Assembly: GCA_964019425.1 (NCBI GenBank)
Contig: OZ025800.1
Span: 744,001 to 808,000 of the forward strand
Source of the DNA: Flectonema sp. DT1601
Taxonomy: Eukaryota
Reading direction: 5' to 3'
Length of the DNA: 64,000 bases
Below, in pieces: positions 4,259-60,918 of the stretch. Numbering within the stretch: the first letter of the stretch is position 1; every line of letters starts with the position of its first letter. The notes below the pieces were generated by a model, which ran no database searches, was not told the origin of the DNA, and saw only the letters and a program-made list of their open reading frames with translations. The translations under genes were made by a program, and so were the position numbers.

Positions 4259-6088
4259 TTAGTTATTTCTCTCAAACTCTTGCAGAATCTTTGCGAAGTC
4301 CGCTGCGAGCTTCTTTCTCACAGCGCTGACACGTGCCGCACTCTTCTCTGGGAGAGGCAGTGCGGGGTTGTTGCATGAAGGCCATCTGTTTGTTATTAAT
4401 ACCAAAAGGACTACAACTACTCTGTGAGAGGAACCTAAACATACCTATCACTTAATCCTGTCTGTGTCATGATTGATATTCTACTTTGCTCATAATTGAG
4501 TAGAGGTGATGGGATTTCCTTAACTTCGACTGCTGGCCCTCCGAGGTTTCCGCCAGATTTCTGTAGTTGAAATAGTTTCTTCTATTTTCTTAAACTAACT
4601 TAATAATACTAAATAGCTAAAGACACATACCAGATGTTGAACTACCTCACCCAATTCCTTTGCAATTCCTTTCATGAACAACGCAGCTGTTTCATACTCA
4701 AGAGGTGGTCTTGTCCTACTCGTCAACATCGCACCAGACTGTTTGACTATGGTATCAACGTATGGCATGCTTGAAAGTGGTCTCCAAGCTGTGAGACCTT
4801 CCTTAAGAACAACATCAGAGTCAGAAATCTGTTTTTTTTTTTTTTTTTTTTTTTTTAGTATGAGATGTTTATGAATAACAATCACAACAACACCAATGCA
4901 ATAAGAGATAATAGAAATACACACCTGAGCAACAATATAAAGGGTCTGTGTCTGAGTTACTATCGATCTGTCTATTTCAATAGAAACCTTCTTAGCACGA
5001 GGCATGGCAGGTTCCATCCAGAATCCAGTCTCCGACTGCACAGAACGGATAGCAGCCTCTTCTGGGGTCTCTCCCTTGTTGAGTTTAGTCTTCGGAAAGG
5101 TCCATCCATTCGGGCAAAGAGTATTGCGAACCATTAGTAGATGTGTCATTTTATCATTCACTAACACTCCTCCAGCAACCGGTTGAGACATTTTGAACTC
5201 ACACAGTTTTCGGTGAAATAAGATTGCGACCTTCTTTTTGTTAACTTCATCCTTTTCATTATCAAGTCCTCCCATTGGAGGGGAGTCATCTGGCCATAAG
5301 TTGCACAGAGTTGGTTCTCTTTTTAATACTTCAACGGTAAAATCTTTAAGAAGTCCGCGTTCAAATTTTGGTAGTTGAGAGTTAGATGACAGCTCATCGA
5401 GGTATTGCCAAAAAGCTTTCTCAATTTGAATCATGGCACCCTCAATAGTGTCACGTGTGTCTGGAGGAGCCTTTCTAATATGAATATCAATAAGTTTTTG
5501 TAAGACTTGATCCAACAAATTTAGTTGTTGCTGCTGTTGCTGTTGCTGCTGTTTCTGCTGCTGTTCAGCATGTCTTCTTTCTGGAGTACCTCCTCCTCCC
5601 ATCGGGGTACCTGTTGAATGTACTTTACCACAGCCCTGACATTGTATGTTCTTTTGATATTTCTGAACTCTCATATTATTACCACAATGTGAGCATGGTA
5701 CAACCCTCCATTGTGAATTCGATGTTGGAGTGCTTGTTGGTGAGTTTCCACGGCGATCAGTTGACTGACGGCGTTGGTTACCTGGAGTGTTTCTACCACC
5801 TGATGTTTATTATTTATAATTAACATCAGAATTAAAAAGTCTACATCAAAATAAACACATACCTGGTTGGTGAGGAAACGACGTCACTGGACCAGAATGA
5901 TCAACTTCTTGTGGTGATCTTGATGATGGACTTGGTCTCATCTTCCCTGGTGTTGTTGTAATCTTTCCTTGAGTTGCAAATTGAGAAAGGAAATCTTGAA
6001 CATGCTGTTGAGTACCTTCTCTTCTCACACCCCCTTGCACAGGGCTATCACGTCTGCGACTATTCGCAAAAAGTTGGTCCATCGACAT
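4259..6088 (-). CDS. DCP2: Dcp2-like mRNA decapping protein (Box A + degenerate Nudix box, N-terminal zinc ribbon), 513 aa, 5 exons
   Basis: Exons 6088-5863, 5799-4925, 4828-4631, 4560-4445, 4385-4259 join in phase (1542 nt) via GT-AG introns. Box A-like QIEKAFWQYLD. Nudix region PVAGGVLVN...GWTFPKTKLNKGETPEEAAIRSVQSETGF. Confidence 0.85.
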
Positions 6089-7608
6089 TTTTGTAATTGT
6101 GACTATTTATTAATAATAAAAAAAAGGAAAGTAAGTAACATCATTTTTTACTGCAAATAATTTTTACTAACAATGTGTCATCAATCCGTGTCGATTTCAT
6201 TCATTTTACTGACGGAACGAAAAAAAAGAAGAGGAATGAAATTACTATTCCCACTTTGTACAATAAACGGTACACATCTGGTGAATGTCTTCTCTTTCTG
6301 GTAGACATTTATTTATTAGGAGCAAGTGGGTTCAGGGATGGGATAAGATGCAGTGTCTCCACCGCATAGTATTATTGTAAGGCGTTGAGAAGTAAAAGCA
6401 TTGCACAAGTGGATCCGCTTTGTGGAGAATGATTTACTTTTATACTCAATCGCTCATACCGTTATTAAAAGATTTTACTATTCTATTTGTAGTTCCGCAT
6501 GCAGAAGACGAGAAGACGCAAAGCCAAGGGGAGAGCCCCTTAAAAAGTCTCGCCTCCCAAGAAGATCCAATTCGAAAAGCAATTACACTTGAAAGAGTAT
6601 ATATAATGTAATTGTGCCTCTATTTTTTTTTCTCATACATATTCATCTTTGTTGTTTTTTTTTTTTTTTCCCCCTGCTCCTTTTTTTTTTTAAACTCTTA
6701 TAATTTCAAAAAACAAAAAACAAAAAGGGTACACGAGTAAGTTACCACTTGCTCGTATAACTTGCTCGTTTTCTAATACTACTGTTTCCTTGTGAATTCT
6801 GTTAGCAAGGTTTTGCGTTTGTATTTCAAAAGAAGCATGTTCCCGAGATTATTAAAAAAAAAATAATAATAATAAAATTAATCATACCTGTATTCCATTA
6901 GTTTAGTGAGTTGGTAACTTTAAAGAGGTCAAGACATAAAAGGTTTTTCCCCTTTATATTAAAAATTGGAATTTCCCTATGTAAGGGAGAGGTATGATAT
7001 TACAAAAGAAAAAATCCACTTGCGGAAAACCAAACAATCTCTGACAGGCAATTGTTGCTTCTGAGGCCAGACAAATTAAAAAAAAACGACTAAGTTAGTT
7101 ACAACTATAAAAAAAAAAATTTTAAAAAATAGATGAAGGAAGAACAAACAAAACACAACTCTGCCCGTACAAAAATCATTTTTTGTTTTTTTTTTTTTTT
7201 TTCCAACAAGTTCAAAAAGAGTTAAAAAGGTGCTAACTTTAACTGGAAGCTACTTTGCTCAACCACAACCCCCCCTTTTTTAATAAATATTAATCTGCCC
7301 GTACGAGTACGCAAAGTAATGCAAATAATTACGAACAAAAACAAAAAAACCTAACCTTGTCTTTTCAATGCGAACAAAGCGAGCATCATAAAGTTGAAGC
7401 ATAGGCTTTGAGAATAACTGATTGTCTGTACATTCCATGGTCAGTAGAATACCTTGAAGGGCTGCTTGCCTTACGCAAGCAGTGTGTTAGAAAAGAAAAA
7501 GAAATCAAATAAATGCCGCTCGTGAGACAAACAAAGTCACTGCAGTTCCAAGTCTCTGTAACTGCGCACATCAAGCATGGCCAGAAGTCAAATAGAAGGC
7601 CAGTACAT

Positions 7609-9906: not shown

Positions 9907-10254
9907 AGAATTGTACTGTTTTGCGTTTGATAGGTTGATTATTATTCATACTAATAATAATCGAATAAAATAGTACAAATAAACATACCACATGTTCGAC
10001 AATGAGCGGGTCAATGAGCCAGAACTGCGCCTGAAAGTTCTTTATTTTTGTCGCTGTTTTCGTAGCCGACATCTTGTTGTGCCTCCTGCGATGAATAATA
10101 ATTATTACATAAGAAGGTAAAGCAAATTATGAGAGCGATAATTTTATAAAGCTGATAAAACACGATACTACAATCAAAGACCTCGTCGGTACGATGTAAT
10201 TGACTCTTCTAAAAATGATATTTAGGAAAGGCATTCATTCAGTCTATAAATATA

Positions 10255-12390: not shown

Positions 12391-12583
12391 TTTATTTAAT
12401 AGAGATATCTGAGGGGAAAAGAGGGTCTTAGTTGTTGAAAAAATAATAAACAACTTATTAGTTTTCATTGACCACTCAGTCAGTTTACAAGATACAATAT
12501 TGCTTGACTCTAAGCAAAGCATGAGAGAGGGGTACGAATATAATACAAAAAGATTTTGCTAATCTTCACCTTTTTTTTTTTAA

Positions 12584-13880
12584 TCAACCAAATGAATTGA
12601 GAAGCGCTTCGCTAGCAGCAGTTATTTGAGAAGTTTTCTTTTCGAGGTGTTTTTGACTTCGTTGCTGAAACCAATCATCCCATTCGTTTCGACACTCAAT
12701 TTCAAAATCAGATTTCGGAATTAGAAAATCTTCCGCTTCCCATTTCCTCCTCTGCGACTCCTGCTCCTCAGCATCCGCAGCTAACTCAGCTGCGCGTGCG
12801 TCAGTCTCTAGTTTTATTATATTTTTTAAAGCCGCTATTTTTGACTCTCTTCTTTTCAATCTTGTACTCCTTGCCTTTATCCGTTCTCTACAATCAGATA
12901 TCGCTGGAGCAATAGCAGAGTGAATACTTTCATAAGAGAGGATTTGACTCTCTTCGATTTGCATTCGTTTCATTATTTCACTAAATAATAAGTCTTCACG
13001 GAGCGTAATCCGTTCTCGAATGCGAGTACAACGGGAAGTAACTTTAGCGGCTTTGATTAAGAGCATTGTGAATAACAATTTCTTACGGAGTAGTCTACCA
13101 GCGTGAATCTCTAAAGAATTGAGTTGTTGTCGCTGTAATCTTTCATGATGAGAAATAGATATAAAAGTAGAACACGGATCCCTTGGTGACGGCGTAGTCA
13201 CTTCTTCTAAATTAAAGACCTCGTCTTCAACTGCCGATGAGAATCGATCGAATATTTCACATTTTGCTGACACTACTCCTTTAGAGTCCAGGTAACCACT
13301 TTTCTTAATAAAGACACTAAATGGTGACAACATATAAGCTGGTCCTTCTTCAGTAGTCATTTTAATTCCTCTCATTTCTCCTCTGAGCTCAGTAGAGGTT
13401 CCCATTGTTGGAGGTTTCGTTGTTGCCAGAACTGGAGCTGACCAACCTAATAACGTTCCGCTTTGTTTTGTAGCTGATGGTGTGCTCACAAACAAGACTG
13501 GTTCTGGGATTATGTGACTGTGGGTGATGTTGGATAAGATTTCTGTTATTGTCTTTGGTATAATTTTAAAATACACACCTTGTCGACATGATCCAACATG
13601 CAGCAAGTCTTCTACTTACCTGAATGGGAGGATCTCTTCTTATTTTCCAAATGTCGTGGCACTGCATCCAATCACTTCTTCGAAGTAACTGTCTACAGCA
13701 TTCTGCAGCAATTGGAGACTGTGCATTATGAATGTTTACACCAGCTGAAGAGTATCCTCCTTGCATTTCAAGTTGCAGTGCTATTCCTGAACACCAACTT
13801 TTCATTAGTGACTTTCCAACATCTAAATAAGTTGATTCGCATAAAGGGACAGGAGGTGGGAAACTGTATTTATGTGGCAT
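12584..13880 (-). CDS. Hypothetical protein with C-terminal coiled coil, 409 aa, 2 exons
   Basis: Exons 13880-13620 and 13552-12584 joined by a 67-nt GTAAGT...AAG intron in phase 0. E/R/K-rich helical C-terminal half. Confidence 0.75.
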
Positions 13881-16153: not shown

Positions 16154-16600
16154 GCCACCTGGGGGGCAGCACGACGTTTTCTAAGGGGGGAGGGATACCT
16201 GTAAACAACAGAATGATTACACATTTCAAAAAAAGAAAAGAAATTCAAACCAATGCCGTGTATAAGGTCTCATTGCTTAGAAAAGAAGTAATATAAAAAA
16301 TTAAGTAAATGACACTATACTGACTTGCTTAATTCAACAAAGAACTAAACGACTGACTCAAAGTCAGATGATACGAATGACTTATTATCGGATTCTAACA
16401 AACTTAAGGAGAACGAATAGAGGGAAAAGAAAAAAAGAAATTCTAAAGTGTAGTTAACGGAGACTTTGATACAATATAAAAAGAGTCTTCTTAGTGTGAA
16501 AGATCTACGTTGGATAATTATACAAACAGGTGACCGAGATGCGTTAATGATCGCGTACAAGTATTTATCGGAAAGTGAAAATCACTCAAACAGATACCTG

Positions 16601-23633: not shown

Positions 23634-23884
23634 GGGAACACTTCGTCCTTATATCATAGTTTAGTATAGTATTGTGATGGAAGCTGCTCTGACAAAGGAA
23701 AGAAATAACAAAGACTGACTTCAGAAGTTAAAGATTATGTGTACTTAAGTATATCACCCAGTGCATTTATAAACCCTGAGTGGGAGATAGAATAAATAAA
23801 ACAACACAAAAACAAAGTTACACGATGGTACCATAAAACTATCTGCGGAAGCAGCTGTGATGGTAACTTAAAGGTTTCGGATGC

Positions 23885-26800: not shown

Positions 26801-28766
26801 TATCAGCACCGCTGCTGTTTTTTCACTACTGCTGAAGTGGCTATATGAACCCTGGAGCTCACCTGTTTGTTTTTTTCTTAATTTTTGGAATAAGTGACTA
26901 CATAAATTCAGAGTAAAACTAATTGTGTGTGAAAGACACCAATCCAGTCGATATGTTAATCAGGTAGCTATTCAACGAGGGATATTCTTACGAAACGCAA
27001 CAATAGGCGCAGACAGTACAATCACAAAAGCACGAAAAACGTGATTTTCTGAGACGAGTACACACATTACCCGACTACACATTATACGCTTCGTCGTCCC
27101 GGTCCAGGAAACTTAGCGAGAGACATGACACAATAAACTATTACAAAAATGCTATCCATACCTGTGGCAAGGTGCCATATAAAGATTCCATTCAAATTAA
27201 TTGTAACTATAGAACGTTGAGTGTCACTGTATAGTATATGTGTCATACTACCTTGAGGAGAAGGAGGTCCACTTCTCTTATTGCAGCTAAAAGATCGAAA
27301 ACGTTTTCCTACAGTAAGGATATTATGACTGTGAGAATCATACGTGAATGTTGTTAGTTGGCCAACAGGATACTTACTCTCAGATCCTCCTAATGTTTGA
27401 ATTGGGGTGAGGGTGCGCATATCCCATATAATTATTTTTCCCATGATGTCAGCACTTATGACTTCAGGGGTACTGTCAAATGCGTGAATTTTACAGAGAA
27501 GTTTATCGTGGCCTCGTAAGACGTGGGTTTGACTTGAGATGAATGGATTCCAACATAAGATATTTCTTCCATACCCAATTGAGAATATTATTCGATACTT
27601 TTGAGAATATGTAATTTGTGTTTTGACTGATGACTCGTGAGCATTCTTAACAGATCGGACTCTGAACGTCAGAATCTCATGTTGTTCATCTTCCCAGCCA
27701 ACATCCCATACGATAACTTTTCCATTCGCCTGACAAGTTATTAGCTGACCTAATTCTTGAACAAGCAATAAATCACATAACCATTCCTTACTACATTGAA
27801 CACGATGTAATAATGTTATTTTTCCTTGGTATGCGAAGATCAGAATAGCTCCGTCGGTTCCACCCGTGAACAATAATTTGTTTATCTCATCAACCGACGC
27901 GCACAATTGCGGCGCGTTCACTTTGAGCTTTTCCGTTGATGTAGACCTATCGAGGTTATCATTCCAAGCGTATAAATATCTGTTTACAATTATTTAAAAA
28001 AATCAAAATAAAAATAGTCAAGCAACAGCCAACGCCTTCCCAATATTAATTTTAAAAGAACAAATACATACCGATCAGCACAGCAAGCAACAATTTTTTG
28101 CATCGGTTGAAAATGATAAATGCTAAATACGGCTGCTGTTGGACCGATTAATTTGGTTACTATTGTTGCCTTTTTATTATCATCATTGATAGTAAACAGG
28201 TAAATGTCGGATGCACCGACAAGACAAAAAATTCGTAAATGTTGAAAATATTTCAAACACTCAATGTCTTCCCAATACAGTCCGACTCCCTGAATTTTTT
28301 TTCCAATTGTTGTGATTGTTGTTGAAGAAGTGTTTTGGGAAACATCCGAAGTTTCATCTTCAACGGACACACTTGATTGAATGACATCTTTAACTGCAGT
28401 GGTCGTATTGCTAAAAGTAATATCAGATGGAACATCACTATACAATCTCATCTGTTTAAGACTATTTGTTGTACTCAAGTCTATCACCAATGAACCAATG
28501 TCGTCCCAAGATATATGTTCATCACAATCTCTGTCAATTTGTTTGAATAATTCTAAAAGAGTATTTCTCTGTGAGTCGGAATACGATTTCACCTCCCCCA
28601 ACGATAAAGCAAATTTTGGAACAGCTTCATACACAGCTTGTTCAAATCCCGTGAAGTCAACAGGCTTAAATAGCAGTTTCTGCAGACATAATAATTGCTG
28701 CTTTTCAAATTTTTGAAGAAATAAGTGGACGAGATGTGTCCCATGAGTAGCATCGGCTCCCGCCAT
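23885..28766 (-). CDS. EF-hand + WD40-repeat protein (WDR49/EFCAB8-like layout) with C-terminal pseudokinase-like region, 1496 aa, 3 exons
   Basis: Exons 28766-28072, 27979-27162, 26862-23885 join in phase (4491 nt). EF loop DRDCDEHISWDD. WD repeats, e.g. LRGHDKLL...ISADIMGKIIIWD. Kinase C-lobe remnant CPPEL...VDVWGIGLIMW. Confidence 0.85.
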
Positions 28767-34209: not shown

Positions 34210-36256
34210 TTCCAGTTTCTGGAAGACAAAAAAAATAAAATAAAAAACTCTATCACGTATCATTATCACTATGTTAACTTAAAAATAATTATCAATTTCA
34301 AGGCAATCCGCCACTGAGGTACACTTTCCTCTTTTTTTTTTTTTTTTTAAAAATCTTTTTTTTTTTGTTGTTTTTTTTTTTTTCCCTTCGAAACTTTGAG
34401 TGGTCTTTACCCACGCATAAGCATGCCAATATTCGAATTAGATTCTCTTTTTAAAAAAAAATAAATAAAGACTCCCTGTAATGGAGAAAGAAAAAAATTA
34501 AGGCAATAAAATGATCTAAGTAAGGGACCGCACACGGGGACGGCACAAGGTCCTCCTAGCAGAGTCAAAAACAATAAATAAAAAGAAACGTGTTTTAGGG
34601 AAGTTCGATCCTATCATTGTTGCTGAATTAGTAAAACAACACAATAATATGAAGGCTTTATATTGATCCTTCCTCTGGAGGATGCTTTGCTTGTCTCGAG
34701 CACTGGATGAAATAAGCTCAACACCCACATCATCATTCTGCTTCAGCATGATTGTTACAGGTGTCTTCATACTTTGCAGATCTCAGTGTATTTTCCCTCT
34801 CCACAGACATGTTTCGTGCGAAAGAGAATTATGGCAACGCACAAAGTCAGGCGCCGATTCCATCTTTCTTATATTAAAAAGAATCCTCTATTTTTTATTT
34901 TTTGTTTTATTTTTTTGTTTTTTGTTTTTTTTGCTTGAAGAATATCTAAGTGTGAGATTGCTTTGAAAAAAAAGAGGGAAAAAAAATGAAATAAAATAAA
35001 ATAAAACATTAGCTGGAGAGAAGCCATCACCATAAAAACAGAAAAGCGAGAAAATTCTGCTTCGCAACCAGCGTTTGCAGTCATCGGTAAATTCAGTGTC
35101 TGTCTCTCAGGGCACAAGTGTATTGTATTTGGGAAGGTGAATATCTACGGATTTCTCCCCTTTTCTTTTTGTTTCTTCCAAATGGTTCGCCAAAACGTAC
35201 TTATTAGTTTCTTTTTCATTTTTTTTATTCCCTTCCCAGTAGAATACAAGCACAACACCGGCTTATCACACGCCATGTGGGTTATTTTTTTGCTTGCATG
35301 CGGCAGCATACTCCACTGACGCAGGACTCCACGTGGTTCACTTTTAAGAGAGGGACATAAACTATAGGAATTATACGCATGTGAAAAAGATAAAAAAAGG
35401 GTAGTCACGAAACACAGATAAAATAGTTACGCTACGTTCGTAACGGTAGGACACCCAACGTCGTTATCTCAATTTTTTTTTTTTTTTTTAGTTTTCGGAA
35501 TGAAATGAACACGCATAACGCTTTCACATATAGTTGTGTACAGAGGACGGAAAAAAAAAAAAAATTGCGGCTGCTGCTGAACGGTTGAAAGTGGAATCAA
35601 CCAATCGATTATTGAATCTAAACTTTTGAACAAAAAAGAAAGAAAAAAAAAAAACCCTCTCAACAGTATCGTACCTTTTTTTTCTTTTTTTTTCCCTTTC
35701 TTTTTTTTTTTTTTTTTTTTGATTGAAAAAAAAAATAATTCTTCGTCAGCTTTCGAAGAACAGATCATCTCGACTATAGTCGTAGAATCATTACAGTTTT
35801 TTTTTTAGTTTTATTCAATAGAAAAAAGAAAAAAGAAACTGGTAAAGTAGCTCAATGGGACAAAAAAAAAAGAAATCTAATTAAATTAACAGAGTCGCAG
35901 TTGATGCGAGTTTCTGTGAAAAAAAAAACCCTCACCAGCAGTCACATTTGTATTTTTTTTTGTTCGTTTTTTTTTTTTTTTTTTTCCCCTATTTCCAACG
36001 CCTTTCGTTTTTTTTCGTTCTTTTGTTTTGTAATTTGCACCTATTCCACACAAATAGGAAAATGACGTTCGTTAGCGTAGTTACCCACGCCGAATCCCGT
36101 CATAGTACAAACCAACAAAAAAGGTTATCAAAGAAAAAAAAAGAGAAAAAAGAAAAAAGAAGAAAAAAACGATTTAATTTTAAATGAAAAAAAAAAAAAA
36201 AAAAAAAAGAGAAACTTAAATCTTCGAAATAGGGGAAATATATAAACGAAATAATG

Positions 36257-39200
36257 CTACGGGACCCTTCTTGGAATACGAGAAGAGGGTAAGCCTTGTG
36301 AATAATCGTTCGAGGTTTTCACAGGAGGAGAAGAGTGGATAAAGTTCGGTGATCCAACCGGTGAAGCGTCCTCGTGTCCGATATCAGAAATTTCATTGTG
36401 GTGTATTGGTAGTATTACTCCTTTTGTTTTAAGCATTAATAATTTATGAATTGAATTCCTCTTCAAACGATTATCACAGAGAATTGAAAGATCACTCGTA
36501 TATCCCTGAGAAGCTATTTGAAGAACACATCCGTCGACTTGACGAATCTTTTGAATTTTTTCATAAATGATCTCCTTAATAGGCTCAACAGGAGCAGGGC
36601 CAAGAGAGGTTTGAGCATGCTGTGATGAAGCAGTACGTCCACCAGCAGGACTAGGCGCACGCCTATGAGTTGACTGATGATGAATTGATGCCCCAATCGA
36701 TTGCTGCTTCATAGCATCAGCATTAAACACTAATAAACATGTTGATGTAAATCTTAAGCAAATCGGAGTTCGACTTTGTCTTGATAATTGAATACCCTTA
36801 CTTCTAAACATGGCATCATCAAGCCTGAGTCCTCCATTGAATTCATAACCGTCTATGGAGTTCAATTCCTTTGAGTCCAGCATGTCTTCTTTTGACTTCT
36901 TTATCTTACTGAGCTTTTCATTTAACCTTGCTTCCTCTTGTTTTAATTGTTGTACTCTTGTAGTCGCCTCATTCTCTTCTGACTGGAGCTCCTTTATAGC
37001 TCTGTGTTTATCCCATGCTTCCCTTTCTAAGTCAGTGAGTCTTTCGTTGTATGACTCTTGTAAGTGTTTTGCGGCATGTTTCTTATCCTGTTGTTTATTA
37101 TATTATTAAGATCGTGTGAGGATGAAAGGAATATAAAAAGCTGTTTTACATACTCCGATCTGCGCCTTTAAAATATCTAGCTGTCTGTACTTATCGTTGA
37201 CTTCAGACTGAATGACTCGATGTTGTTGTTGTACTTCTTCGGAGTTCAACTTTTCAAGCATCTCCCTCCTGATGTTATTGCAGTAATTTATTTTTGTCTT
37301 ATTTTGAATTTAAAACTGAACAGCTGCTGTAAGTCAGCAGCATTGTTGTCTTAACTTTTCTAAATTAAAGTAGTCACCATACCTTTCTTGCTCAAGAAGC
37401 GTGTCCATCTTGCGCAGCTGGCGGGTAAGATCTTGACGTTGAGTTTCACCCTGTTATTGTTTATGTTAAGTAAGTAGAGTAAAGAAATATTAATAAGATT
37501 GATTGTTCAGTTTAGTTAATTTAGTTCATGTTCACTTCACAAGATAAAATAATACCTCAGAAAGACTTTTTGTGACGTCTGCGAGCTTGCGCGTCATTTC
37601 AGCGCGATCTTCATTCTTCGCTGTGGATTCAGAGAGTTGTTCGCGGATGGTTGCATTTGATGTTTGCAGAAGTCGTAGTCGATCTTGCGTTTGCTGCAAT
37701 TGCCTGAGAGTATCCGTCCGCTCCTGTTCTGCAGAGTGCTGCATATCACGTTTAGTAAATTCGTGTTCTGCCCTTTCTGTTAGTAACTCTCTTTTGAGGC
37801 GCTCGGCTTCACTGGTTCTGACGAGCATGAGTTCATTCTTCAAGTCTTCGTTGGCGTCGGATGACATCTTCCATTCTCCGTTGATTTGTCTTTCAAAAGT
37901 AAGTTGTTTACCCTGTTCAAGTTTACCTTGTAGCTCAGTTTGTTTCTTTCGCATGCGGGTTAACTCGTTTTCTAGTAGTTTGATGCGTTCGTCTTGTCGC
38001 TTTGTATCTTCACGCTGAAGCTGAATAGTTTGTTGTTGTTGGTGGAGTGCTGAAGTAGCTGAAGCTTCTTGTAAAGCGATGTCGTCCCTGGTTTGATTCA
38101 TTGTGGCTTGAACAAGTTCTGATGCTCTTCTTTGAATAGCTCTCGATACATCAGATCCAGCAACACCTGAAGTAGGAACACCATTACTACTCTTTGGATC
38201 TTGAATCCATGAAAATGGATTTCCTTCTACTTCGATGGAAAGTTTTCTTCCAGTAGAAGCTAGCGGATTATTTAATACAAATGAAGGATGCTCTCCGAAC
38301 TGGAGCTCGCACCTCGACGGTAGTTGCACTGATCCCGATGACGGGTTCATTAGATTTCCATTTAATTTAACATCACCAAGTGGTAATAAACTTATTCTCT
38401 CACCCGCTACCTGAAATACAGCATACGGCTGAGTTGCACCATCGTCTTGTTGAGGGGAAAGGCCAGTGAGTTTCACAGAGTGGATTGAAGAGTTTTCAAA
38501 AGGAAGTGTTGAGGGGTCAGGCCAAGGGACTGCAACTTTACCAGCAGAAGCGTCATCCCAACATGAAAGTAAGTGTTGGTACTCAAAACCTTGTCCTACC
38601 TCTCTTGGGGTATTAGACTGTGACTGTGGATGACTACCTGTAGTCCTGTCAGTGCTACTTCTTCTCATCTTACCAAAAGTTGATAAAGATACTCCAAGAA
38701 CTGAACTAGATCGTAACTTTGCTGGGTGTTGTACAGCCAATGTGTTTGAGGCATTTGCTGCTGCAGGTTCTTCGTCGTCTTCGCCTTCACTCTGCTCATG
38801 CTCAATTTGAATGTAGCCGCCCTCTCTGATATTTAAAATGTCTTCTTCTGCTGTGAGTTCTGCAGCCTCCGCGTTATTAATTCTTGTATTCGCTGCATCC
38901 AGTGCACGAGAGACGCTGTCGACTAACCTTCGAGGAGTTTTGTGTCTCGCAGAATCCTTTCTTCCTCCGAGACTTGCTGATGTTGATCGACGGCGATTTG
39001 TCTTCTTGCCGGTTGTGATTTCTGCAGATCGAACTCTCTGAACCTTTCGCTGCTCTTTTTCATGGTCTTCTTCTTTGAGAAGCGTGTGAGCCAAGTCTCT
39101 TCCCCACTCGTTGGGTTTTGATCCCCGCAGATGCTCAGCTACTTCAATATCTTTGAATCCAAAAGCAAGTGTTGGCTGCATGAATGATGGAGTTCTCTTG

Positions 39201-40714: not shown

Positions 40715-40992
40715 GTTGATGAGATGACACCCCCCGACGTGTATTACTGAGAAGAAATGATGTAAAATAAAAAATAAACTTCTCAACTAGAATGTGACCT
40801 GACGACATCATTATATTTTCACAATAGATCGCTGTTTACGAGGGAAGAAACAAAAAGCATTCGATACTTCAGAAGAGTTCGTTAAAAAGACTCATGCACA
40901 GCACGTGTAACAATTGCTTCGCTTCGTTTTGGTAAATATACGTCGATGAATATCAAAGTGTAAAGTAAGGGTAATAAATACATATTTTTTTT

Positions 40993-47346: not shown

Positions 47347-47727
47347 TCTGTTTGAGGATAGACTGAAAAGGAAAAAAAATATATATATTGACTTCGTAAT
47401 ATTAATTAACCCATCACAATACCAGTTGTGTTGATTTTTTTTTTTTTTTTTTTTTTTTTTTGACATGCAAAAATAAATTCACTAATGCATCTGAATGAGA
47501 TAATGCATGCATTCCGTGATTGTTTTTTTTACATGTTTTTTTTTCAGGTTCAAAAAAAAAAAGAAAAAGACAAGAAGGACGAACACTTCCGCTCGTTTGC
47601 TTCAGCACAGAGTTAAAATAATAATTAATTGATTTTTTTTAACTTTTAGCACATATGAACTGCTTCGCTGTGGAAGAGTGCACACCACCTGCAACAAATA
47701 CAAATCTAGCTCAGTTCCAAAAGTTTA

Positions 47728-47955: not shown

Positions 47956-49878
47956 CTAGTCAGAATCAACATCCATGTCAGTTGGACCAGAGTTGTTGCT
48001 GGTCTCGTCTTCATCCGATTCTTCATCTTCTTCAACTTCTTCATCTGAATCTTCGAAGTCTTTGGATTTCTGTTTTTAATTTTTGTAATAACAAACAATA
48101 ACCTGATTCCTTTAAGAAGTACAATCACACACCCAATACTCATAAAACCCGTATGTCCATCTGTTATTACTTTCACAATCAACATTCTCATCATCGCTCA
48201 GGAGATCGATGTCTGCCATTTTGTCTTTCCAGTCCTCTCTTATCCACGATACTCTAAACTTTCCAGGTTTAATGACACTGTGGTTAGTGTTGATTGTTGA
48301 TAATTATTATTAGTAAGAATTTATTGTGTTTCTACATACTCTTTAACAACTGCCCATGCCCAAACATTTTCCACCCAGAGACTTAATTCGGTTCCTTCAC
48401 GGACACCACTTGCTCCGATTACTTCGCGTGTTGGACCGTCGAACTGTTTGTGTTTTTATTCTTTATAAGAAAGTTATGAGAGTCGGAAAACGGTTGTAAA
48501 CAATACATACAGAAGCCTCACTACAGTCATCACACATTTCATTGTTTTCATAAGAATGAGTAAATTGTTTTCGTGCTGTTTCAAAACTGATTGTTGTTCC
48601 TTTTGAAAGGCGATCTTTCATTTCGTTATACCTCCCAAAGAATGGAACTGTTATATTATATTCCTTATCATCGGATTTGTTTTGGTCCACGACGACAATT
48701 TCGTATGTTGAAGAGCACGTCATTGAGACGATGTGTTTGTCTTCAAGGCAATATACCATTTGGGGTATGTGTCGTCTTTCGCGCATATCGTAGTCCTTAC
48801 CTAACAAGGACTTACATTTAACACCCCAGTTCCAAACGGAACCGTCTTCTAATAGCATTGAGTGAAATTGTTTTCCTCCACAAACTTTTTTAATCTTTCC
48901 AACTGGAACTAATATGTCAGTAGGTGTCAAAGAGGTATCTGTTGATGATGCAGCAACACGACCCCAACCTCTTAGTACAGATCTCCCTTTGATGTCGGAT
49001 ATAACAAATGAGGCTTCTGGACCGCTGCCAAGTCGGAAGTTTGTTTCTTCAGATTCTTCGTTTATTTTTATTTCTGTTGGAGACTGCATAGTTCTGATAG
49101 TACCAGTTCCTAAACGGCCATACTCACCAAATCCTGAGGTGTAGATTTGTTTTCCAGATCTGACTATCACATGTTGCGGTCCAGCAGCTATTTCTTCTAC
49201 TTCAACTTCTAAATCGGTTTCAAAAGTTGGGATCTTAGTTGGTTTTGGGATCACACCATCTGGTGGAGGTGCTGCACAACATTGACCATCACCACCATAA
49301 CCCCAAACATAAAAATCACCTTCCTTATCTGTTGCATAAGATGTATTTCCGCTAGCAGTGATACTCGTTGCTTGACTCATCTTTACCGGTTGCGGTTCTA
49401 TTCTTAGCGGTCTGTTTAAAGCCATACCACATTGACCTTTACTATTACTTCCCCATGAAAATACTAATCCCAGATCTGTTCTTGCTAAGCAATGGTGAGC
49501 ACCGCATGCTATTTCTACAACACGTTTCTTGTCGAGTGCCTTGATTGGAATCCACTCGTAGGATTGTTCTAACTTTTTAGGTTCAACACCCAATTGACCA
49601 AAGGCATTACAACCCCATCCATACACTTTAGAGTTAGATCCTAAAATGAGGGTGTGGCGGTGTCCACTTACGATCTGTTTTGGTGTCGTTTTAAAATCGG
49701 AAAATCCCGGCAGGTGGACAGGAAAGTCCAACACCTGATCGGTTCGTGTTTCATTTCCCGGGTTAGAAATATTAACGTCCCCCCAAATATAAGTTTCATA
49801 TTCTGCTTCTTCAGAGTCGCTAACACTCGATGAGTCGCTGTCACTATCGCTATCTTCGGCCTTCCGTTTCCCAGGCAT
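47956..49878 (-). CDS. RCC1-repeat beta-propeller protein with C-terminal Trp-rich beta domain and acidic tail, 576 aa, 4 exons
   Basis: RCC1 repeats (VYGWGCNAFGQLG, IACGAHHCLA...VFSWGSNSKGQCG, GFGEYGRLG). N-terminal basic MPGKRK. Exons 49878-48511, 48443-48340, 48277-48133, 48069-47956 join in phase (1731 nt). Confidence 0.92.
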
Positions 49879-50104: not shown

Positions 50105-50111
<7 letters not shown>

Positions 50112-52420: not shown

Positions 52421-55400
52421 CTATTCCTTATCAGAACTAGACTTTACAAGTGGAGCAAGCTCTCTTGCTCGTTGATTAGCTGGTGAAAGAGATCCCTCTG
52501 AGGGTTGGGAACTCTGTCGTAATGGAGGGAGAGGAGATCTTAATGGAAGAGGTACTTGTTGATCATCACCGTCATCGTCATGAGGTGGTTCAACTGTAAG
52601 AAGAGTCAGTGTATTCGTCTTTACTGCTGAGACAGCTAAGTTAGATTCCACAACAGTATTTGACAGTCCAATCGTTTCATCGAAATCCTCTTCGTCCGAC
52701 GTAGTATCAATAGACTTCGCTGTTTGTGGATCTAAACCACCTAGCGACCTACTCATCTCTAATTCTTCTCTCACAGTCACATCAAGAGGGTTCTTAACAC
52801 TTGGAGGCAATACAGGCATTCTTATACTGTTCGCAGTCAGTGTTGGTCTCCTCAGTGAAGGTTGAGTTGTCTAGTAATTGTTAATTTAAAAAAGATCATT
52901 ACATTCCAAACACACAAATAATAAATACATACAACTCTACGAGACTCCATCCTCCTACCAATGTATCTTGAGTATCTGTCATCAGCAATTTCTAAGACGG
53001 CCTGTTTTTATATTATTACTCACCTTGACCTTGTCGATGATGTTTAATTGAAAGAAAAGGTACGTTTAAAAAAAGAAAACAAAAAAAGGGAAACATATTC
53101 CGTCTTATCGACCAGAAGACGTTGTCGAGTCTGGTACTCGGAAAACTTGTTTAATTTTTTCCCGTTTGAGAATTCAGAAACGTGCAGCGTCTTTGCGAAG
53201 TATTCTCAAAAGGTTTACGACAACAGCACACCTTCCTAAACCCAGCAGATAACAAGGGATTGCTCTTTACTTTCCAAAGGGGAAAAGCATTATTATTTTC
53301 ATTAAGCGTAACAAGCCCCTACTTTACACCCTTATGGGTACAAGTATGATAACCAAATAAATAAAAACACAAACCTGTAAGCAATGAGGGTAATTATCAA
53401 CCGCCCAACTAAACCCACGCTGGTCTAAAACGTATACCTGACAATAAGTCTTTGCTGTGATGGTATATGGTGATGGAATGCCAAATAGTAAGGGAAGCTC
53501 ACCAAAGAACGCTCCCTCACTTAAGACAGAAGTTGAAGAATGAGACATTACAACACTACCTCTTGTGATCATATAGAAGAATGATGCAGGTTCACCATGA
53601 GTGATGATTACAGAATTAGGTGTGAATGCTTGAAGACGAAGTTTAGAAACAACGTCTGAAATAAAAAGATCATTTGCCTCATTATAAAGCATGGGAACAG
53701 ATTCTAACACATGAGCGTTCAAATGATACGACAGAGTTGATCTGAGATCTGCTGGGAGTGGCCAAGATAAAGCATCAAAGTCAGAACCAGTGTGATTCCC
53801 ATCAAGTAAGAAGTCATACTGACTAACGTGATATGTTCTTGTTGATCCCCACAAGAATCTAACGTATCCGATTACTTCTGCTCGGTACTGTGCTGGAAGT
53901 TTTCGTTCAACAAGAAAGATCTTTAGCTGCTCAACTAGTCGCTCATATTCTTTTTGATTAGGATTTGTAGAATCAAGTAAAACAGCAACATAAGCAATGA
54001 CGGTTGCCCAGACGGCAACACCTGCAAGTTGAGCTACCATGACCACTAGTGTCTGGGGATCACTCTGCGGCCAACGACAACCGTATCCCGACATTGCTCG
54101 TATTGCCCAATCAAAACAAGTTGTATATCTGTATAACAAATCCTTATCCTCAAAGGTGTTACTATCTAATTGAAAATATCTCAAATACTGATCACCATTA
54201 CCCTCCTCATCAATGTTTGATGTCCATAATATCCAATGTAATGCAGCAGCTGACATGTGAAGAATAAAGAACACTCCTAGTAATAGCTTTACGGCTTGGA
54301 CTCTAATTGGGGATATTTGTGACATGTGTCTAGCAACAAATGCGGTGAATAACTGATTAAATGATAACATGTTCAGTAGTCGATTGGCGCGAAAGGGAGG
54401 ATCCCAAATCATGTTAGCATCCCAAGCAAATAGAGCAGCAAGAAATTCTATCGGAAAACACGCTAGCACTGACACAGCAAATGCAACCGTTTTGTAGTAG
54501 TGTGGAGTACTTCGAAGGGTTGTTGCAATTGATATCCAGTAGACTGAAACATCTGCAACCCATTGGAGCACTGCCATAAATATCGAATATGGCAAATCAA
54601 ACCCAATATGTAAAGGAATATTAACACAATTAAATACTAACACTGCTATCTTTAGGGTATTCCATATATCTTTGTGAAGCAATCGAGAAGCTGCTCGTTT
54701 ATCATCTTTCTCTTGTTGTTCACTTCTTGTTACTAATGTTAACCTCCGTAGACGAACTTCCTTTCTCTTATCGAGGTTGGTTGACGCGCTGTTAAATTCA
54801 CCAATTGTTTGAAGCATTCCAGCGGTGTTGTCGTCATCCACTAATTCAACTAACTGAGCAAGTCTTCCATCTTTCCATTCTTCCATACTGGAGACGGGAA
54901 GTTTTTGTAGTGCGACAGCGAATATAGACTGCCTGAATTGATATAAATGTTCTGTACTGCTCTTAAAGTCGCTCCTCGGATGTGGTCCAATTCCCTGGAA
55001 TAATCCTCGACTGCGAAGCATTTCACCTGCTGAGACTGCCATCGTTTCAGTGATGTCAAAGCAGTCGACTAACCAAGCAACAACATCAGCCCCCACAAAT
55101 ATATTATCAACTTTGCTCATACAACCTGTTCGTTTCGAATGTAAGAAATGTTTTGATACGTGATTGCTGAAAACAGCAGCGAATCTTTCCAGTCCGGTTT
55201 CAGCTTTTTCTGCTGCTTTTTCAGCAGCTTTCCAGGCGTCTTCATCTACAATCTGTTGAGCAGGGCTAAATAAATTAGATGAAGATGATACCATTGTCAT
55301 TACAGGATCAGCTGCACTAAACACGTCGCGTGATTTCCTTCTTGCTGATGGGATGGCTGCCCTAATCAATTCAGCTAAGTTGCTATTTTCAGACTTTAAA

Positions 55401-57241
55401 GTTGCAGCAATAGATGGCCTGGGACCATGTCTAAAGGTAGGCATCGCGTCTGCGGGCTGAATGCAAGTGTCCGATTGATTGAGAGCGTCTTTAGTTCTTC
55501 CTGATAAGACGTTGTTTAAATGCTCCAAAAGCCATTTCATTGGCACTCCAGCTGGGGGACTCTCGCTCATGGACTCAGCGATTGCAACGGCGCCCTCATG
55601 CTCGCGAGCATTGACTGCGGAATTGATATCGAGTAATGGTTCTATTCTGGCATCCGCAGTTAAAACATAAACAGTTTTATGTGGACGTGGATTTGGAACA
55701 CCCTGAGGTTTTAATCCACCCTTCTCAGGCACAACTACATCAACAAGAGGAATAGCCCGAAGCCCACTTGGAGAACCATTCGGAATAGGAGATAAACAAG
55801 GTTCCCTATTTTGATTTGCCTGACCGGGTACTTCTAATGGATTGAATGATAAGACCTCAGCTCCTATTTGTCTTCCAAAAAGAGCCAAGTTTCTTGCAAT
55901 GTCACGCTGTGTTGATATAATACCGTGTACTAACGCACTCCTTCCTCTGACTCTACTCATTCCAGTAAGACAATCACCTGTTGATATACCAACACTCCAT
56001 GAGGGTTTTCTTTCAGTAATACTGCTGCTGTTGTGAGGTGCTTTGAACATTTGAACTAAACTTGAACAGAATGAAAGAATTCTTATATTCAATTCCTTGC
56101 CGCCAACCCACCAGACGTTGCAGCTGTTCGATCCAGCCCACTCTAGTCGGGCTCCGTATGCGTGACACATGTCCGCTATGCTCTCAAATGTCGTTGAGTT
56201 TTCAAAAGAAATATCTAACCTTTCTTTATAATCAACAACCACAGTTAAGAATGTACAGGTGTGACGCTTCCATGGTTCGAAGGTGACATTTCGTGAAAGG
56301 TTTGGAGTACCATGAGGATCGGTACTACTTCTCTCTGATGCTTTATGTGAAAGTGTTCGAAGAGGAAGCGGAGTAGTATCAGATCGATCCCTTGAGAAGG
56401 TTCTAGATGAAGGAGATGGTATTGTAAAGTTAACTCTTGCTCTTGCAGTCGCCCCCTCACTTAAGTGAGAACCAGTAGAGACACAAAGTGGGTCGACTTC
56501 TGGTGCACTCAAATGAAGTGGTGGCATTCCTGGTGATAATACAGCAGGGAGTGGTCCAGCTTCAGTACCTGATGGCTCTGCGAATATAAAAGCTCTTCCT
56601 GATCTTCTTCCAACAGCTGGCGCTGAACACATCTCTCCATCTTCATCTTCTCCTATAGGGGTAACAAATTCAGTGTTGAGTCGATCACATTCACCGAAAT
56701 CATTTATAGCTAGTTGGAGGTGTTCAATAATTCGAGTTCTGGCACATTGAGCACCAAAACCAACGCACTTAATTTCATGTGGTATAAGTGGATTATATAT
56801 CTCCATACAGGTGTCAGGGAGTTCAGGTATGAACCCCCAAGCTGCTTCACGACCAATTGATACCAAATGATGAGATAAATCACGTAGAGGAATAGAAAGG
56901 GTTTTATCAATAAATAATTTCAACAAAAAGCACAACGACAACGACAGAACTAAAGCCACAGCAACAGCTGGCCCAACCATACTAACATCTGGTGAGGAAG
57001 AACACGAAGACGATAGTTGTGAGCAAAGAAGATCAGCCTCATTAAGTCCTAATAAGGTACTACTCATGACTTTCTCAACACACGAAAATTGATTATAATT
57101 TATACTTCCTCGTGAGATCTGCTCAATCCCGAGAGCTGCTCCGATTGTCACTAACGAGATTCCAACCTGCGCAGCGAATATAATTCGCGAGGACTGATAT
57201 CCACGAATGTCCTCCATCTGAACATCCTCCTCTGAGAACAT
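52421..57241 (-). CDS. Fusion protein: 2TM + HAMP-like + degenerate class III nucleotide cyclase + DEP + 6TM cation channel + cyclic-nucleotide-binding domain, 1461 aa, 3 exons
   Basis: Exons 57241-53375, 53001-52933, 52870-52421 are all phase 0. DEP FVGADVVAWL...AVSAGEMLRSRGLF...LYQF. S4-like FRANRLL. Pore FDWAIRAMSGYG. C-linker LPAQYRAEVIGY...LPADLR. CNBD IITHGE...GAFFGELPLL. Confidence 0.9.
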
Positions 57242-58308
57242 TCAACAACTCTATTGGAATGTCATTTAACGGAAATGTTATTTTCTGAAAGAAAAAGAAA
57301 ATAAATATCACCATCTTGTATTGCACTGAATAGGATCAGGTTCGTGACTTTATACTTTCGATCAATTTTCTTTTTTTTTGTTGCGGGCCTGATGGAAAGA
57401 ACAAAACAAGAAAAAGCATAGAATAAAGTTGGCAATGAGATACTACCGTAAGTGGGGATGGTGGTGACCAAACAGTATTGTAGCTGTAATTCTATTTCCA
57501 GTCTTTGTGTAGAAGACTTTGAAAAAAGATAATTTCTCAGTACGACGTGTGAATTCTCTTTTTGTGGTTTAAAGTGCTCAAACTTTCAAACCAAAAAAAA
57601 AAAAAAAAAAAAAAAAGAATTTAAATATAAAAAAAAAAAGAAACTAATAATAATAACGTTCTACGATCAAAAACAAATAAAATAAAAATTGACCTCTCAA
57701 AATCCTTTTTTATATTCCTAACGGAGGAAAGAAACTAGGATTTAAACTTACTATAAAAAAATGTTAGAGCTTTCCTATACTACTAGAATACAATAAGCTT
57801 AACCAAAAACTCTTTTTTTTTTTCGCCTCCTCATATTTATAAGTAACTAAAAACGTAACTGAATGCGGCGTTGAATGCTGAGCAAAGAGAATAGAAGATG
57901 AACAAACTAAACAAAAAAAAATTAATTTTACGAATCAGAGGCAACTGTTCACTGATGGCAGTTAATCTCAAAGCCGCGAACGGCGATAGAATAATGTGCC
58001 AAATTCTAACAAAAAAAATTGAAAAAAAAAAAAAAAAAAAAAAAGAACTCATCGTGAAAATATATTTCCGGGAAATGAACCAAAATTTGAGAGTTCAAAG
58101 AAACGTAACCCAAAAACGCGCGGAGGGAAAAAAAGAAAACAAAACAAAGTAGGGGACTAATATTAAAAAAAATGAAGGCTGGAGAACAAACAAAAACATA
58201 AGAAAATAAAAGCGCTAGAGGATAGTAGCAACGCTGATTACATGAACGCAGGTGCTGCCCGCATACGATTGAATAAACATCCTTATAACGTTAGAAAGGA
58301 TAATTCAA

Positions 58309-59214: not shown

Positions 59215-59591
59215 TGATGGAGTACTGTTTTCTTTTTGAAGATATAATATTACAACTACTGTACAAAGGAACACCTATCATTATAAACACCACACTGCTT
59301 CCCAACTATTAACATGCTTCTTATTCCCCTGTAAGTAAGGAAGTATCAAAAGTAACATATGAACCATATTATTAAATGCGCCACACTGCTGTCGTCAGGC
59401 TGGATAGATGGGCCGAGCAGCGGCGGTCGCCATAAACTAACAAATTGATAAGACTGAAGACTTGACTGACAAGTTAAGTCTTTCGAGCGGATGCCTCAAA
59501 TGGAAAAGAAAATTGTTATTTCAAAGAAAATCGAAAGGCACAACCCTCAGACAGGGAATACATAAACCCAAACAGAAAAGACGTAATTTCT

Positions 59592-60918
59592 TTAGGTCGT
59601 TTCATTTATAGTTGCGTCTGATGGCGCTGCTCCGCCTGAAAGGTCGAGGTCTCCAACAGCTACTGCCTCGTGTGTTTGAGTTGTGTTATAACTTTGGCAC
59701 TCAGGACATTTCATTGCAATGAAGTGAAGTGGAACGGTACTCTTACGCAAACAATCATTACAAATGATTGTTGCTTTATGAGATGCGAACTCTGCAGGCA
59801 TCGGATTCATTGCCACTTCTGTTGCTATCCGACTACCGCTTTCCGAATCTCGAGAGATAGTTTTCTTACAAAGTGGACATCCCAGCTGTCCAGAATCTGT
59901 TAACTTCTTTTTGCATACATCCTGTTAGGTTTTATGTAATTATATTTTCTTTAAATAACTGAGATCAGTATTGCGCATATCATAAAGTAAAAAAAAGATA
60001 AAAAAGTTTAAAACACACATGAATGAAGTGACCGCAGTTCATTAAATCGACTTTCTCGTAGCTGCTGTGGAGATCTTCCAAACAAACAGGGCACGAATTT
60101 AAACCTCCCTGATTGCATTTATGATTTTGTAGTTTAGTTGACCAACACGCGTTACATTTATCGCAGTGAGAATAGTCTGATTTTCCAATTCCTCCGTCGC
60201 CTTTTCTGCACATTCCGCATTGTGCGCAATGCCAAACGAGGTCTTTAGGAGCTCCTTCAGGAATGTTCATCCAGAGATGGCAAGGTTCACAGTAGTAGTC
60301 TGCAAAAGTAATTTTACACTTGCAGCATGACGCTGCTGCTGGTTGATATTCATCACAGTCACCACACTGAATGTGAGTTACCTTAAACCTATCTAAATCA
60401 TGATCTTCCTCAGCATCATGACAAAATCTACATGCAGCTAAAGATGTACACGTTGAACACTGAATAAGACATTTACGTGAGTAGTGTTGGCATCCGTTGT
60501 ACGGCTTTTCAAATGTTCTCGGCAGCTTTGGAACATCAGGTTTCGCAAAGGCGCTTACAGTAGCCCTGACATCATCACCGTCTTCTATGGAAACCTTTTC
60601 AAGAATTTCGAGATCTGCTGCTGCTGCTAAAACATTACTTCTTCCTAAGTGATGTTCAATTCTTAATCTTAATGCTTCAATTAAATAACTTTCTTCATCA
60701 ACTGTTCTGACAGATGTTGTACTCAGAGGTAATATAACTTTCGTAAGTGTTTCACAAGAGGCATCCCACTTGGCAGCAGCTTGTTGGCACTTCGCAATAC
60801 CAATTAGATTGTGAACTCTTTGCTCTCTAGTGATGTGCTCTCTAGCCAGTCCCGTCATGTAGCCAGCAATAGCGGCATCGATGTCTCCTCTTGAGCGAAG
60901 TTCGTCGGGAGATGTCAT
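59592..60918 (-). CDS. RCHY1: Pirh2/RCHY1-like E3 ligase (CHY, CTCHY, RING-H2, zinc ribbon) with N-terminal TPR-like region, 409 aa, 2 exons
   Basis: GCQHYSRKC...CRFCHD; ICNDC...HFIAMKCPECQSYNT. Intron 60018-59922 restores the RING CPVC...CGHFIH|DVC...CPLC. Confidence 0.93.

Follow-up and report, generated by a model that had tools for sequence, protein, structure and literature searches.

A co-oriented gene cluster with short introns

We analysed a 64-kb window of Flectonema sp. DT1601 DNA (contig OZ025800.1; positions given below are those of this whole stretch) with respect to the 3' ends of its cis-spliced introns and to the AG dinucleotides that lead its genes, some of which are candidate acceptors for a spliced leader (SL). 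The window had a G+C content of 38%. All open reading frames (ORFs) of at least 120 amino acids (aa) with a Pfam domain were located on the minus strand, which makes the genes a unidirectional cluster. Among the domains found were kinase, Dcp2/NUDIX, formin FH2, kinesin, CAP-Gly, WD40, RCC1, cNMP-binding channel-like, CHY/RING fingers and TPT transporter. The best protein matches of the ORFs were diplonemid-type transcriptome sequences with 60-78% identity, one of them labelled Hemistasia, and the next-ranked matches came from kinetoplastids, Diplonema papillatum and euglenids. Judging from these matches and the shared strand, the window carries a co-oriented cluster of euglenozoan genes, the source being most similar to diplonemids. 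In D. papillatum, essentially all mRNAs are reported to bear a spliced leader and genes lie in co-oriented clusters (PMC10161547); the one-strand arrangement found here matches those clusters with their universal SL addition. An Rfam scan of the window gave no match to an SL RNA, a small nuclear RNA or any other family, and a tRNA scan of the window gave no match either.

Introns were modelled with a minus-strand dynamic-programming gene finder in which codon usage and, after bootstrapping, the donor were scored. The context upstream of the acceptor was given zero score to avoid circularity. Fourteen introns were obtained in this way, all with A/C-rich ends. Homology, reading frame and a permissive run of the gene finder raised the count to 19, all with GT-AG borders and with a median length of 70 nt. 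Reading in three frames added 48339-48278 in the RCC1-repeat gene, two introns in the kinesin tail whose donors, GTATTA and GTATGG, deviate from the consensus, and 27161-26863, and the permissive run contributed 9988-9916. The other eight of the nine extra introns from the permissive run were discarded, either for weak donors (scores 1.0-5.4) or, in the case of 21784-21223 (score 7.7), for lying in a stretch without a supported gene. The 19 cis-introns are listed here; the lower coordinate is the G of the acceptor AG.

59922..60018, minus strand: 97-nt intron, CHY/RING zinc-finger gene; gtgtgt…aaaacctaacAG; gene finder, and splicing restores the C-x-H-x2-H-x2-C spacing of RING-H2
53002..53374, minus strand: 373-nt intron, cNMP-binding channel-like gene; gtttgt…aatataaaaacAG; gene finder alone, nearby upstream AGs out of frame
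52871..52932, minus strand: 62-nt intron, cNMP-binding channel-like gene; gtatgt…aacaattacTAG; gene finder alone, the sole T at -3 among the 19
48444..48510, minus strand: 67-nt intron, RCC1-repeat gene; gtatgt…aaaaacacaaacAG; gene finder and reading frame
48278..48339, minus strand: 62-nt intron, RCC1-repeat gene; gtatgt…cactaaccacAG; GTATGT donor and frame continuity into the next exon, missed by the gene finder
48070..48132, minus strand: 63-nt intron, RCC1-repeat gene; gtgtgt…aaattaaaaacAG; gene finder and reading frame
37451..37555, minus strand: 105-nt intron, kinesin tail; gtatta…aaacaataacAG; gapless alignment to P0127
37269..37382, minus strand: 114-nt intron, kinesin tail; gtatgg…gcaataacatcAG; gapless alignment to P0127
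37088..37153, minus strand: 66-nt intron, kinesin tail; gtatgt…ataataaacaacAG; gene finder and gapless alignment to P0127
32214..32283, minus strand: intron of the CAP-Gly gene with ambiguous acceptor, 32214 (…caactcacacAG, 70 nt) or 32244 (…ccattgaAG, 40 nt); both in frame, gene finder chose 32244
27980..28071, minus strand: 92-nt intron, WD40 part of the 1497-aa gene; gtatgt…aataattgtaaacAG; gene finder and gapless alignment to P0247
26863..27161, minus strand: 299-nt intron linking the WD40 and kinase-like ORFs; gtatgg…aagaaaaaaacaaacAG; in-frame join and gapless alignment to P0247
16717..16836, minus strand: 120-nt intron; gtatgt…aaactaaaatactacAG; gene finder alone
13518..13578, minus strand: 61-nt intron with the most C-rich end; gtgtgt…ccaacatcacccacAG; gene finder alone
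9916..9988, minus strand: 73-nt intron, formin gene, after a 28-codon first exon; gtatgt…caaacgcaaaacAG; permissive run with strong donor and frame
5800..5862, minus strand: 63-nt intron, Dcp2-like NUDIX gene; gtatgt…aataataaacatcAG; gapless alignment to P0125
4829..4924, minus strand: 96-nt intron, Dcp2-like gene; gtgtgt…(A)25 cAG; gapless alignment to P0125
4561..4630, minus strand: 70-nt intron, Dcp2-like gene; gtatgt…ctatttcaactacAG; gapless alignment to P0125
4386..4444, minus strand: 59-nt intron, Dcp2-like gene; gtatgt…attaataacaaacAG; gapless alignment to P0125

Nine of the 19 introns were confirmed by gapless junction-spanning alignment to proteins of relatives (four with P0125, three with P0127 and two with P0247), and another was supported by the RING-H2 spacing restored over its junction. 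GT and AG were imposed by the gene finder, and the nine homology-confirmed junctions show both independently. The spliced Dcp2-like model aligned with P0125 without gaps at all four junctions (76% identity), as did the kinesin model with P0127 at three junctions (78% identity). The 1497-aa WD40/kinase-like model aligned with P0247 in one segment over both junctions (residues 2-847, 37% identity), and the homology to P0247 begins at ORF residue 31, which corresponds to acceptor 26863, and not at the ATG chosen by the gene finder. For the CAP-Gly intron we prefer acceptor 32214 over 32244, because it ends in CAG and gives a length within the range of the other introns. Searches of metagenomes with P0125, the relative of the Dcp2-like protein, yielded no confirmed locus. 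Those with kinesin P0127 gave 25 loci, all matching residues of the N-terminal motor domain only (24 at ≤47% identity, one short contig at 63%), and none was used.

Gene models were changed by these introns. In the kinesin gene (36257-40714, minus strand), the three tail introns lengthen a 1060-aa ORF to 1390 aa, colinear with P0127. The WD40 ORF and a 1024-aa kinase-like ORF form one 1497-aa gene (23885-28766, minus strand), joined by intron 27161-26863; compared with the 1524-aa P0247, this gene has a second, weaker segment of similarity at residues 927-1432.

A-rich, G-depleted ends of the cis-introns

The first-pass annotation had claimed that the introns lack a polypyrimidine tract, that they end A/C-rich, and that their T-rich part lies beside a GT(A/G/T)TGT-type donor. 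Over positions -22 to -3 of the 19 introns, the composition was A 54%, C 18%, G 3.4% and T 24%, and over positions -12 to -3 it was A 59%, C 26%, G 1% and T 14%. C occupied position -3 in 18 of 19 introns, giving a CAG ending. As background we used the 1485 non-coding AGs of the window (A ~33%, G ~18%). A was well above this background (10.8 vs 6.6 per 20 positions, p=2e-7) and G far below it (p=5e-10), with no significant depletion of pyrimidines (8.5 vs 9.7 per 20, p=0.08). At least 8 of the 15 positions from -17 to -3 were A in 14/19 cis acceptors, compared with 16% of the background. The nine validated introns alone showed the same pattern (A 57% at -22 to -3 and 63% at -12 to -3), so the A-rich ends are not an artefact of a model that pushes A-rich codons into introns.

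The T-rich part was indeed found near the donor. T made up 50% of positions +7 to +26, and along the intron from 5' to 3' it fell from 0.48 to 0.26 while A climbed from 0.26 to 0.54. GT[AGT]TGT was matched by 16 of 19 donors (GTATGT in 11, GTGTGT in four and GTTTGT in one); the off-consensus donors were GTATGG in two introns and GTATTA in one. The claims about A/C-rich ends and about the T-rich part thus held, and that about the polypyrimidine tract held for the sequence adjoining the AG, where no cis acceptor had 11 or more pyrimidines among the 15 positions from -17 to -3. It did not hold farther upstream, since five of the 19 introns have a window of at least 10/12 pyrimidines 23-75 nt upstream of the acceptor with no intervening AG. 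The median length of the AG-free zone was 28 nt before the cis acceptor and 11 nt before random non-coding AGs; the zone measured at least 25 nt in 13/19 introns, compared with 26% of random AGs.

When the A-rich ends were turned into a weight matrix and the window was scanned, the acceptor threshold was exceeded at 72 coding-strand sites and at 70 sites of the opposite strand. The A-rich AG signal is non-specific by itself, and the donor must carry most of the information. As for membership of the U2 type, GT-AG borders were found in 19/19 introns, removal of the intron restored a homologous protein in 9/19, and a 3' pyrimidine tract was present in 0/19. Such a tract is described as optional in fungi (PMC5677156).

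A T-rich 5' part and an A-rich 3' part are complementary in composition, as they would be if the two paired in structured, non-conventional introns like those of euglenids and hemistasiids. Among the 17 introns then known, however, the 25-mers at the two ends of the same intron paired at -4.42 kcal/mol and those from different introns at -5.12 kcal/mol (permutation p=0.94); composition-preserving shuffles gave -4.79 and random intergenic pairs -5.52 kcal/mol. Pairing of the intron termini was rejected, as own ends pair no better than foreign ones. Moreover, all borders are GT-AG, including those of all nine homology-confirmed introns, and we consider structured introns of this kind very improbable.

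The A/C-rich end might also represent a branch-site motif that has merged with the 3' splice site, so that a tract has no space, an arrangement known from Trichomonas, Giardia and Yarrowia. These organisms lack a 3' pyrimidine tract, have only A/C sequence before the AG and hold the branch point at a fixed 2-4 nt from it (Irimia & Roy 2008, PMC2483917). Two introns of the window end in ctaacAG or ctaaccacAG, and [ACT]TAAC occurs in the last 45 nt of 8/17 introns, within 14 nt of the end in six of them. The counts of such motifs are nevertheless no higher than in composition-matched shuffles (p=0.13-0.64, n=17), the distances of TAAC-like motifs from the AG are scattered with no fixed value, and CTAAC is found in 2/17 introns. 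Whereas the motif is invariant and the genomes are intron-poor in the organisms described in PMC2483917, the signal here is compositional, lies at variable distances and belongs to an intron-rich genome with 19 introns in 64 kb. An anchored branch point is thus unlikely.

Another explanation is historical: the A-rich ends might be relics of poly(A)-tailed or A/T-homopolymer-rich inserts, or result from a strand-specific mutation bias, with no function in splicing. One intron does end in (A)25 followed by CAG, and non-coding DNA of both strands is full of long A and T homopolymers. Against this stand the positional course of the A enrichment along the intron, the strong G depletion and the CAG in 18/19 introns, as well as the report of the same trait genome-wide in a diplonemid (PMC12621601). 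We regard a relic as quite unlikely.

The closest known case is that of the Diplonemidae, for which a (G)/GTATG donor and a CAG 3' end are described (Thakur et al. 2025, RNA 31:1826, PMC12621601). In Diplonema japonicum, A is the commonest base in the 'PPT' (polypyrimidine tract; the 20 nt before the 3' splice site), which the authors call unusual, and the feature is weak in L. lanifica and R. humris (PMC12621601). Compared with the text of that paper, the introns of the window resemble those of D. japonicum in GT-AG borders, GTATG donor, CAG end, short length and A as the commonest base of the last 20 nt. They differ in length, the median being 70 nt here, 41 nt in D. japonicum and 74 nt in R. 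humris (PMC12621601). The A-rich cis end is therefore a trait already published for a relative, possibly of the same lineage. A U-rich 5' part and G depletion were not found described in sections 5 and 11 of Thakur et al. (PMC12621601).

Pyrimidine-rich AGs ahead of start codons

Eight AGs situated 9-55 nt before start codons follow pyrimidine-rich tracts. They are likely candidates for spliced-leader acceptors, as judged from sequence context.

57285..57305, minus strand: pyrimidine tract and AG, candidate SL acceptor, 43 nt before ATG 57241 of the channel-like gene; best upstream donor score 1.1
47363..47383, minus strand: pyrimidine tract and AG, candidate SL acceptor, 16 nt before ATG 47346 of an 80-codon ORF; best upstream donor score 4.0
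40747..40767, minus strand: pyrimidine tract and AG, candidate SL acceptor, 32 nt before kinesin ATG 40714; best upstream donor score 3.6
34219..34239, minus strand: pyrimidine tract and AG, candidate SL acceptor, 9 nt before ATG 34209 of the CAP-Gly gene; best upstream donor score 1.2
23689..23709, minus strand: pyrimidine tract and AG, candidate SL acceptor, 55 nt before ATG 23633 of a 126-codon ORF; best upstream donor score 2.2
16181..16201, minus strand: C-rich tract and AG, candidate SL acceptor absent from the first-pass annotation, 27 nt before ATG 16153; best upstream donor score 3.8
12409..12429, minus strand: pyrimidine tract (15/15) and AG, candidate SL acceptor, 18 nt before ATG 12390; upstream ORF ends in a stop, no donor nearby; best upstream donor score 0.6
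6103..6130, minus strand: pyrimidine tract, short A/T spacer and AG, candidate SL acceptor, 14 nt before Dcp2-like ATG 6088, whose N-terminus matches P0125; best upstream donor score -1.3

Such AGs could instead be the acceptors of cis-introns in 5' untranslated regions (UTRs), an alternative that was checked by scanning 45-400 nt upstream for donors. No consensus-type donor was found in this range before any of the eight (8/8), longer introns being possible. The best upstream donor scores ran from -1.3 to 4.0, with a null median of 1.8 and a median of ~7 for real donors. Given the lack of an upstream donor, outron acceptors fit the eight leading AGs better than 5'-UTR cis-introns do.

All seven cis acceptors and all six gene-leading AGs named in the first-pass annotation were found to be as it described them, each coordinate being that of the minus-strand acceptor G. 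Its broader statement that the AGs before start codons are mostly pyrimidine-rich fared less well. The six named sites do have T 62.5% and C 22.5%, although they had been chosen by eye. For the AG nearest upstream of each of 19 start codons, taken unselected, A was 31% and pyrimidines 58%, with no difference from background in A (p=0.86), and 5/19 reached 11 of 15 pyrimidines, against 12% of the background. From the cis acceptors these same AGs differ clearly, both in A (p=5e-5) and in pyrimidines (p=0.008).

The position of the tracts was examined as well. Within 150 nt of the 19 start codons, the best tract-AG did not surpass those found around random intergenic positions (p=0.46), whereas within 60 nt it did (p=0.007). 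A tract-AG with at least 12/15 pyrimidines was found within 60 nt of 8/19 starts, with ~30% expected by chance. Tracts of at least 11/12 pyrimidines followed by an AG are common elsewhere too, with 194 cases on the coding and 222 on the opposite strand. In non-coding DNA of both strands, runs of A or T of 15-30 nt are very numerous (for example 4832-4856, 14060-14090 and 14824-14850), and this abundance of homopolymers makes both pyrimidine-tract-AG and A-tract-AG sites frequent by chance.

Start codons at 40714 (6/6 homologues), 6088 (P0125) and 3738 are backed by the N-termini of homologues; for ATG 3738 the closest pyrimidine-rich AG is 212 nt away. Four modelled 'starts' (37261, 26782, 9906 and 48219) turned out to be internal exons behind A-rich ACAG acceptors, and their reassignment removes apparent counter-examples to pyrimidine-rich leading AGs.

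Some further features of these regions were recorded. Short introns are possible in the 5' leaders before ATG 3738 (~3753-3900), ATG 28880 (~28885-28936) and ATG 61537 (~61592-61635), all unvalidated, with a donor-like GTGTGA, GTACGT or GTTTGT followed by …cacAG, …caaacAG or …cttttacAG; the candidate before ATG 61537 would, if real, be a cis-intron with a T-rich end. An upstream ORF of four codons lies within 57241-57285, its ATG 19 nt past the candidate acceptor and ahead of the main start of the channel-like gene. We also considered ORFs 13880-12584 and 12390-10255 as a single CAND1 gene, in which AG 12409 would be a cis acceptor, and rejected this model, as the upstream ORF ends in a stop without a donor and the downstream ORF has a plausible ATG. 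Searches of the PDB with two HEAT/TPR-like ORFs gave nothing useful.

Multi-kilobase stretches without long ORFs or Pfam matches, rich in repeats and homopolymers, lie at 18500-23200, 29000-32000, 42300-47100 and 50000-52400. A dispersed repeat of ~170 nt has two copies (14357-14529 and 43422-43592, 94-97% identity), one of which sits in the upstream part of ORF 13569-14573; that part is probably non-coding because the repeat lies inside it. A 65-nt repeat family (30444-30508, 44070-44134, 44364-44428 and 44757-44821; 62-91% identity to the reference copy) is found in stretches without long ORFs, and an (ATT)n microsatellite at ~50040-50110.

Recognition of cis and leading acceptors

The explanation we favour, to which we give an even chance of being right, is that the introns belong to the short GT-AG kind of conventional spliceosomal introns and are laid out much as in fungi, the 5' part being U-rich and followed by an AG-free, A-rich 3' spacer, and that the pyrimidine-rich leading AGs are likely SL acceptors. 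Introns would be recognised mainly through a strong GTATGT-type donor, the adjacent U-rich element, their short length and the first (C)AG past the spacer. The last ~20 nt would serve as this A-rich, G-depleted spacer ending in (A)CAG, and would probably let the spliceosome use the first AG past the branch point without a 3' pyrimidine tract. We infer a branch point in or before the A-rich stretch, and the median AG-free zone of 28 nt is as expected downstream of one. AG avoidance is reported to shape the composition of the 3' region of introns (PMC10946897), and depletion of G rather than of A is one way to avoid premature AGs (compare PMC10946897). The donor-less, pyrimidine-rich AGs before eight starts would be the SL acceptors of a polycistronic cluster, recognised by their tract as in kinetoplastids. 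The difference between cis and leading sites would then be a by-product of two modes of recognition, intron definition and a tract-dependent outron, and not a dedicated insulating code.

Introns of fungi offer a parallel to this layout: a U- or pyrimidine-rich element lies close to the donor, the tract adjoining the AG is weak or absent, and the introns are short and are each defined as a unit (PMC5677156). Unlike here, where no branch motif is enriched, the fungal CTRAY motif is clear (91% in Fusarium; PMC5677156). Fungi have no SL trans-splicing. The candidate leading sites resemble kinetoplastid SL acceptors and nematode outrons in having a tract and AG shortly before a start, in lacking a 5' splice site upstream and in the common orientation of the genes. 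They differ in that a strong tract-AG within 60 nt was found at only ~8/19 gene starts, and they are known here by their sequence.

Several observations weigh against the reading we favour. The branch motif YTRAY was found in 8/17 introns with 8.2 expected from composition, and TAAC in 8/17 with 5.8 expected (p=0.2), in both cases among the 17 introns then known. Regarding the A-rich end as a by-product leaves the choice of A, over C or U, as spacer filler unexplained. The unselected nearest AGs barely differ from background in pyrimidines (11.6 vs 9.7 per 20, p=0.051, n=19), and a strong tract-AG within 60 nt is missing from about half of the starts. Nine of the 19 introns are supported by model or reading frame alone, and one 64-kb window is the sample for all composition statistics.

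The first-pass annotation had proposed two acceptor codes. In this model, A-rich cis ends are selected as poor substrates of the SL machinery, internal acceptors being kept for U1-defined cis-splicing and pyrimidine-rich orphan AGs for the leader. The compositional difference between cis acceptors and nearest-start AGs is real, and it speaks for the model that strongly pyrimidine-rich contexts occur at no cis acceptor (0/19) and at 5/19 nearest-start AGs, that A at cis ends lies so far above background, and that the pyrimidine-rich leading AGs have no upstream donor. Neither code is specific alone, as the similar numbers of sites on the two strands show for A-rich and pyrimidine-rich AGs alike. 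In Schistosoma, cis-splicing and the leader compete at shared acceptors, 43% of leader sites being at cis acceptors (PMC5832876), so the selective problem is a real one.

Other evidence does not fit insulation. In five of the 19 introns, the cis acceptor is still the first AG to follow a window of at least 10/12 pyrimidines farther upstream. Under the first-AG rule of kinetoplastids, this window would leave those five unprotected. The depletion of pyrimidines at cis ends is not significant, and the signal consists of more A and less G. In nematodes, it is enough that no donor lies upstream for an outron to be defined. This classical notion of the outron as a matter of donor absence is quoted in PMC5832876. 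Euglena gracilis, a euglenozoan with both cis-splicing and SL trans-splicing, shares with the window a CAG consensus at both kinds of site; it employs one C-rich tract for introns and outrons alike, as described by Gao et al. 2024 (PMC11170887), whereas in the window A prevails at the cis ends and T/C at the candidate outron ends. Separate codes are thus no general need of euglenozoans.

Overall, the observation of the first-pass annotation was partly confirmed, firmly as regards the cis ends and weakly as regards the leading AGs, and its two-code interpretation is plausible and partly supported by the sequence. We judge the two-code model possible but doubtful. Insulation of cis-introns from the spliced leader is a hypothesis, and the contrast between cis and trans acceptors should be taken as a testable hypothesis, not as a result. 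In its full form, the proposal would be that the spliceosome of this diplonemid lineage reads two 3' signals, an A-rich, G-free …AAACAG for U1-defined cis-splicing and a U/C tract with an orphan AG for the SL, and that the A-rich end has been selected to keep the abundant SL ribonucleoprotein off internal acceptors; we consider this rather improbable. No comparison of cis and outron acceptors in diplonemids was found in the literature searched. In the text of Thakur et al. (PMC12621601) the term 'outron' does not appear and cis ends are not compared with SL acceptors, although the supplementary figures of that paper or bioRxiv supplements may hold outron logos. The main text and text supplements of Valach et al. 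2023 contain no such comparison, and the supplements are silent on acceptor or splice-site composition.

What the window provides is a local, well-supported case of introns that have a U-rich 5' part and A-rich, G-depleted ends, a trait already reported in Diplonemidae, together with corrected gene models. Organisms that combine cis-splicing with a spliced leader must keep the leader off internal acceptors, and the way in which they do so is understood only in part. Classically, the distinction is ascribed to whether or not a donor lies upstream, yet in flatworms the two reactions are known to compete for the same acceptors. If the two-signal proposal were true, it would amount to a partition of cis- and trans-splicing at the level of sequence, for which we found no precedent in the literature for any organism. 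A lineage with purine-rich cis tracts would be a natural experiment on the needs of U2AF65 and SF1 and on whether the composition of the acceptor can steer the choice between cis- and trans-splicing.

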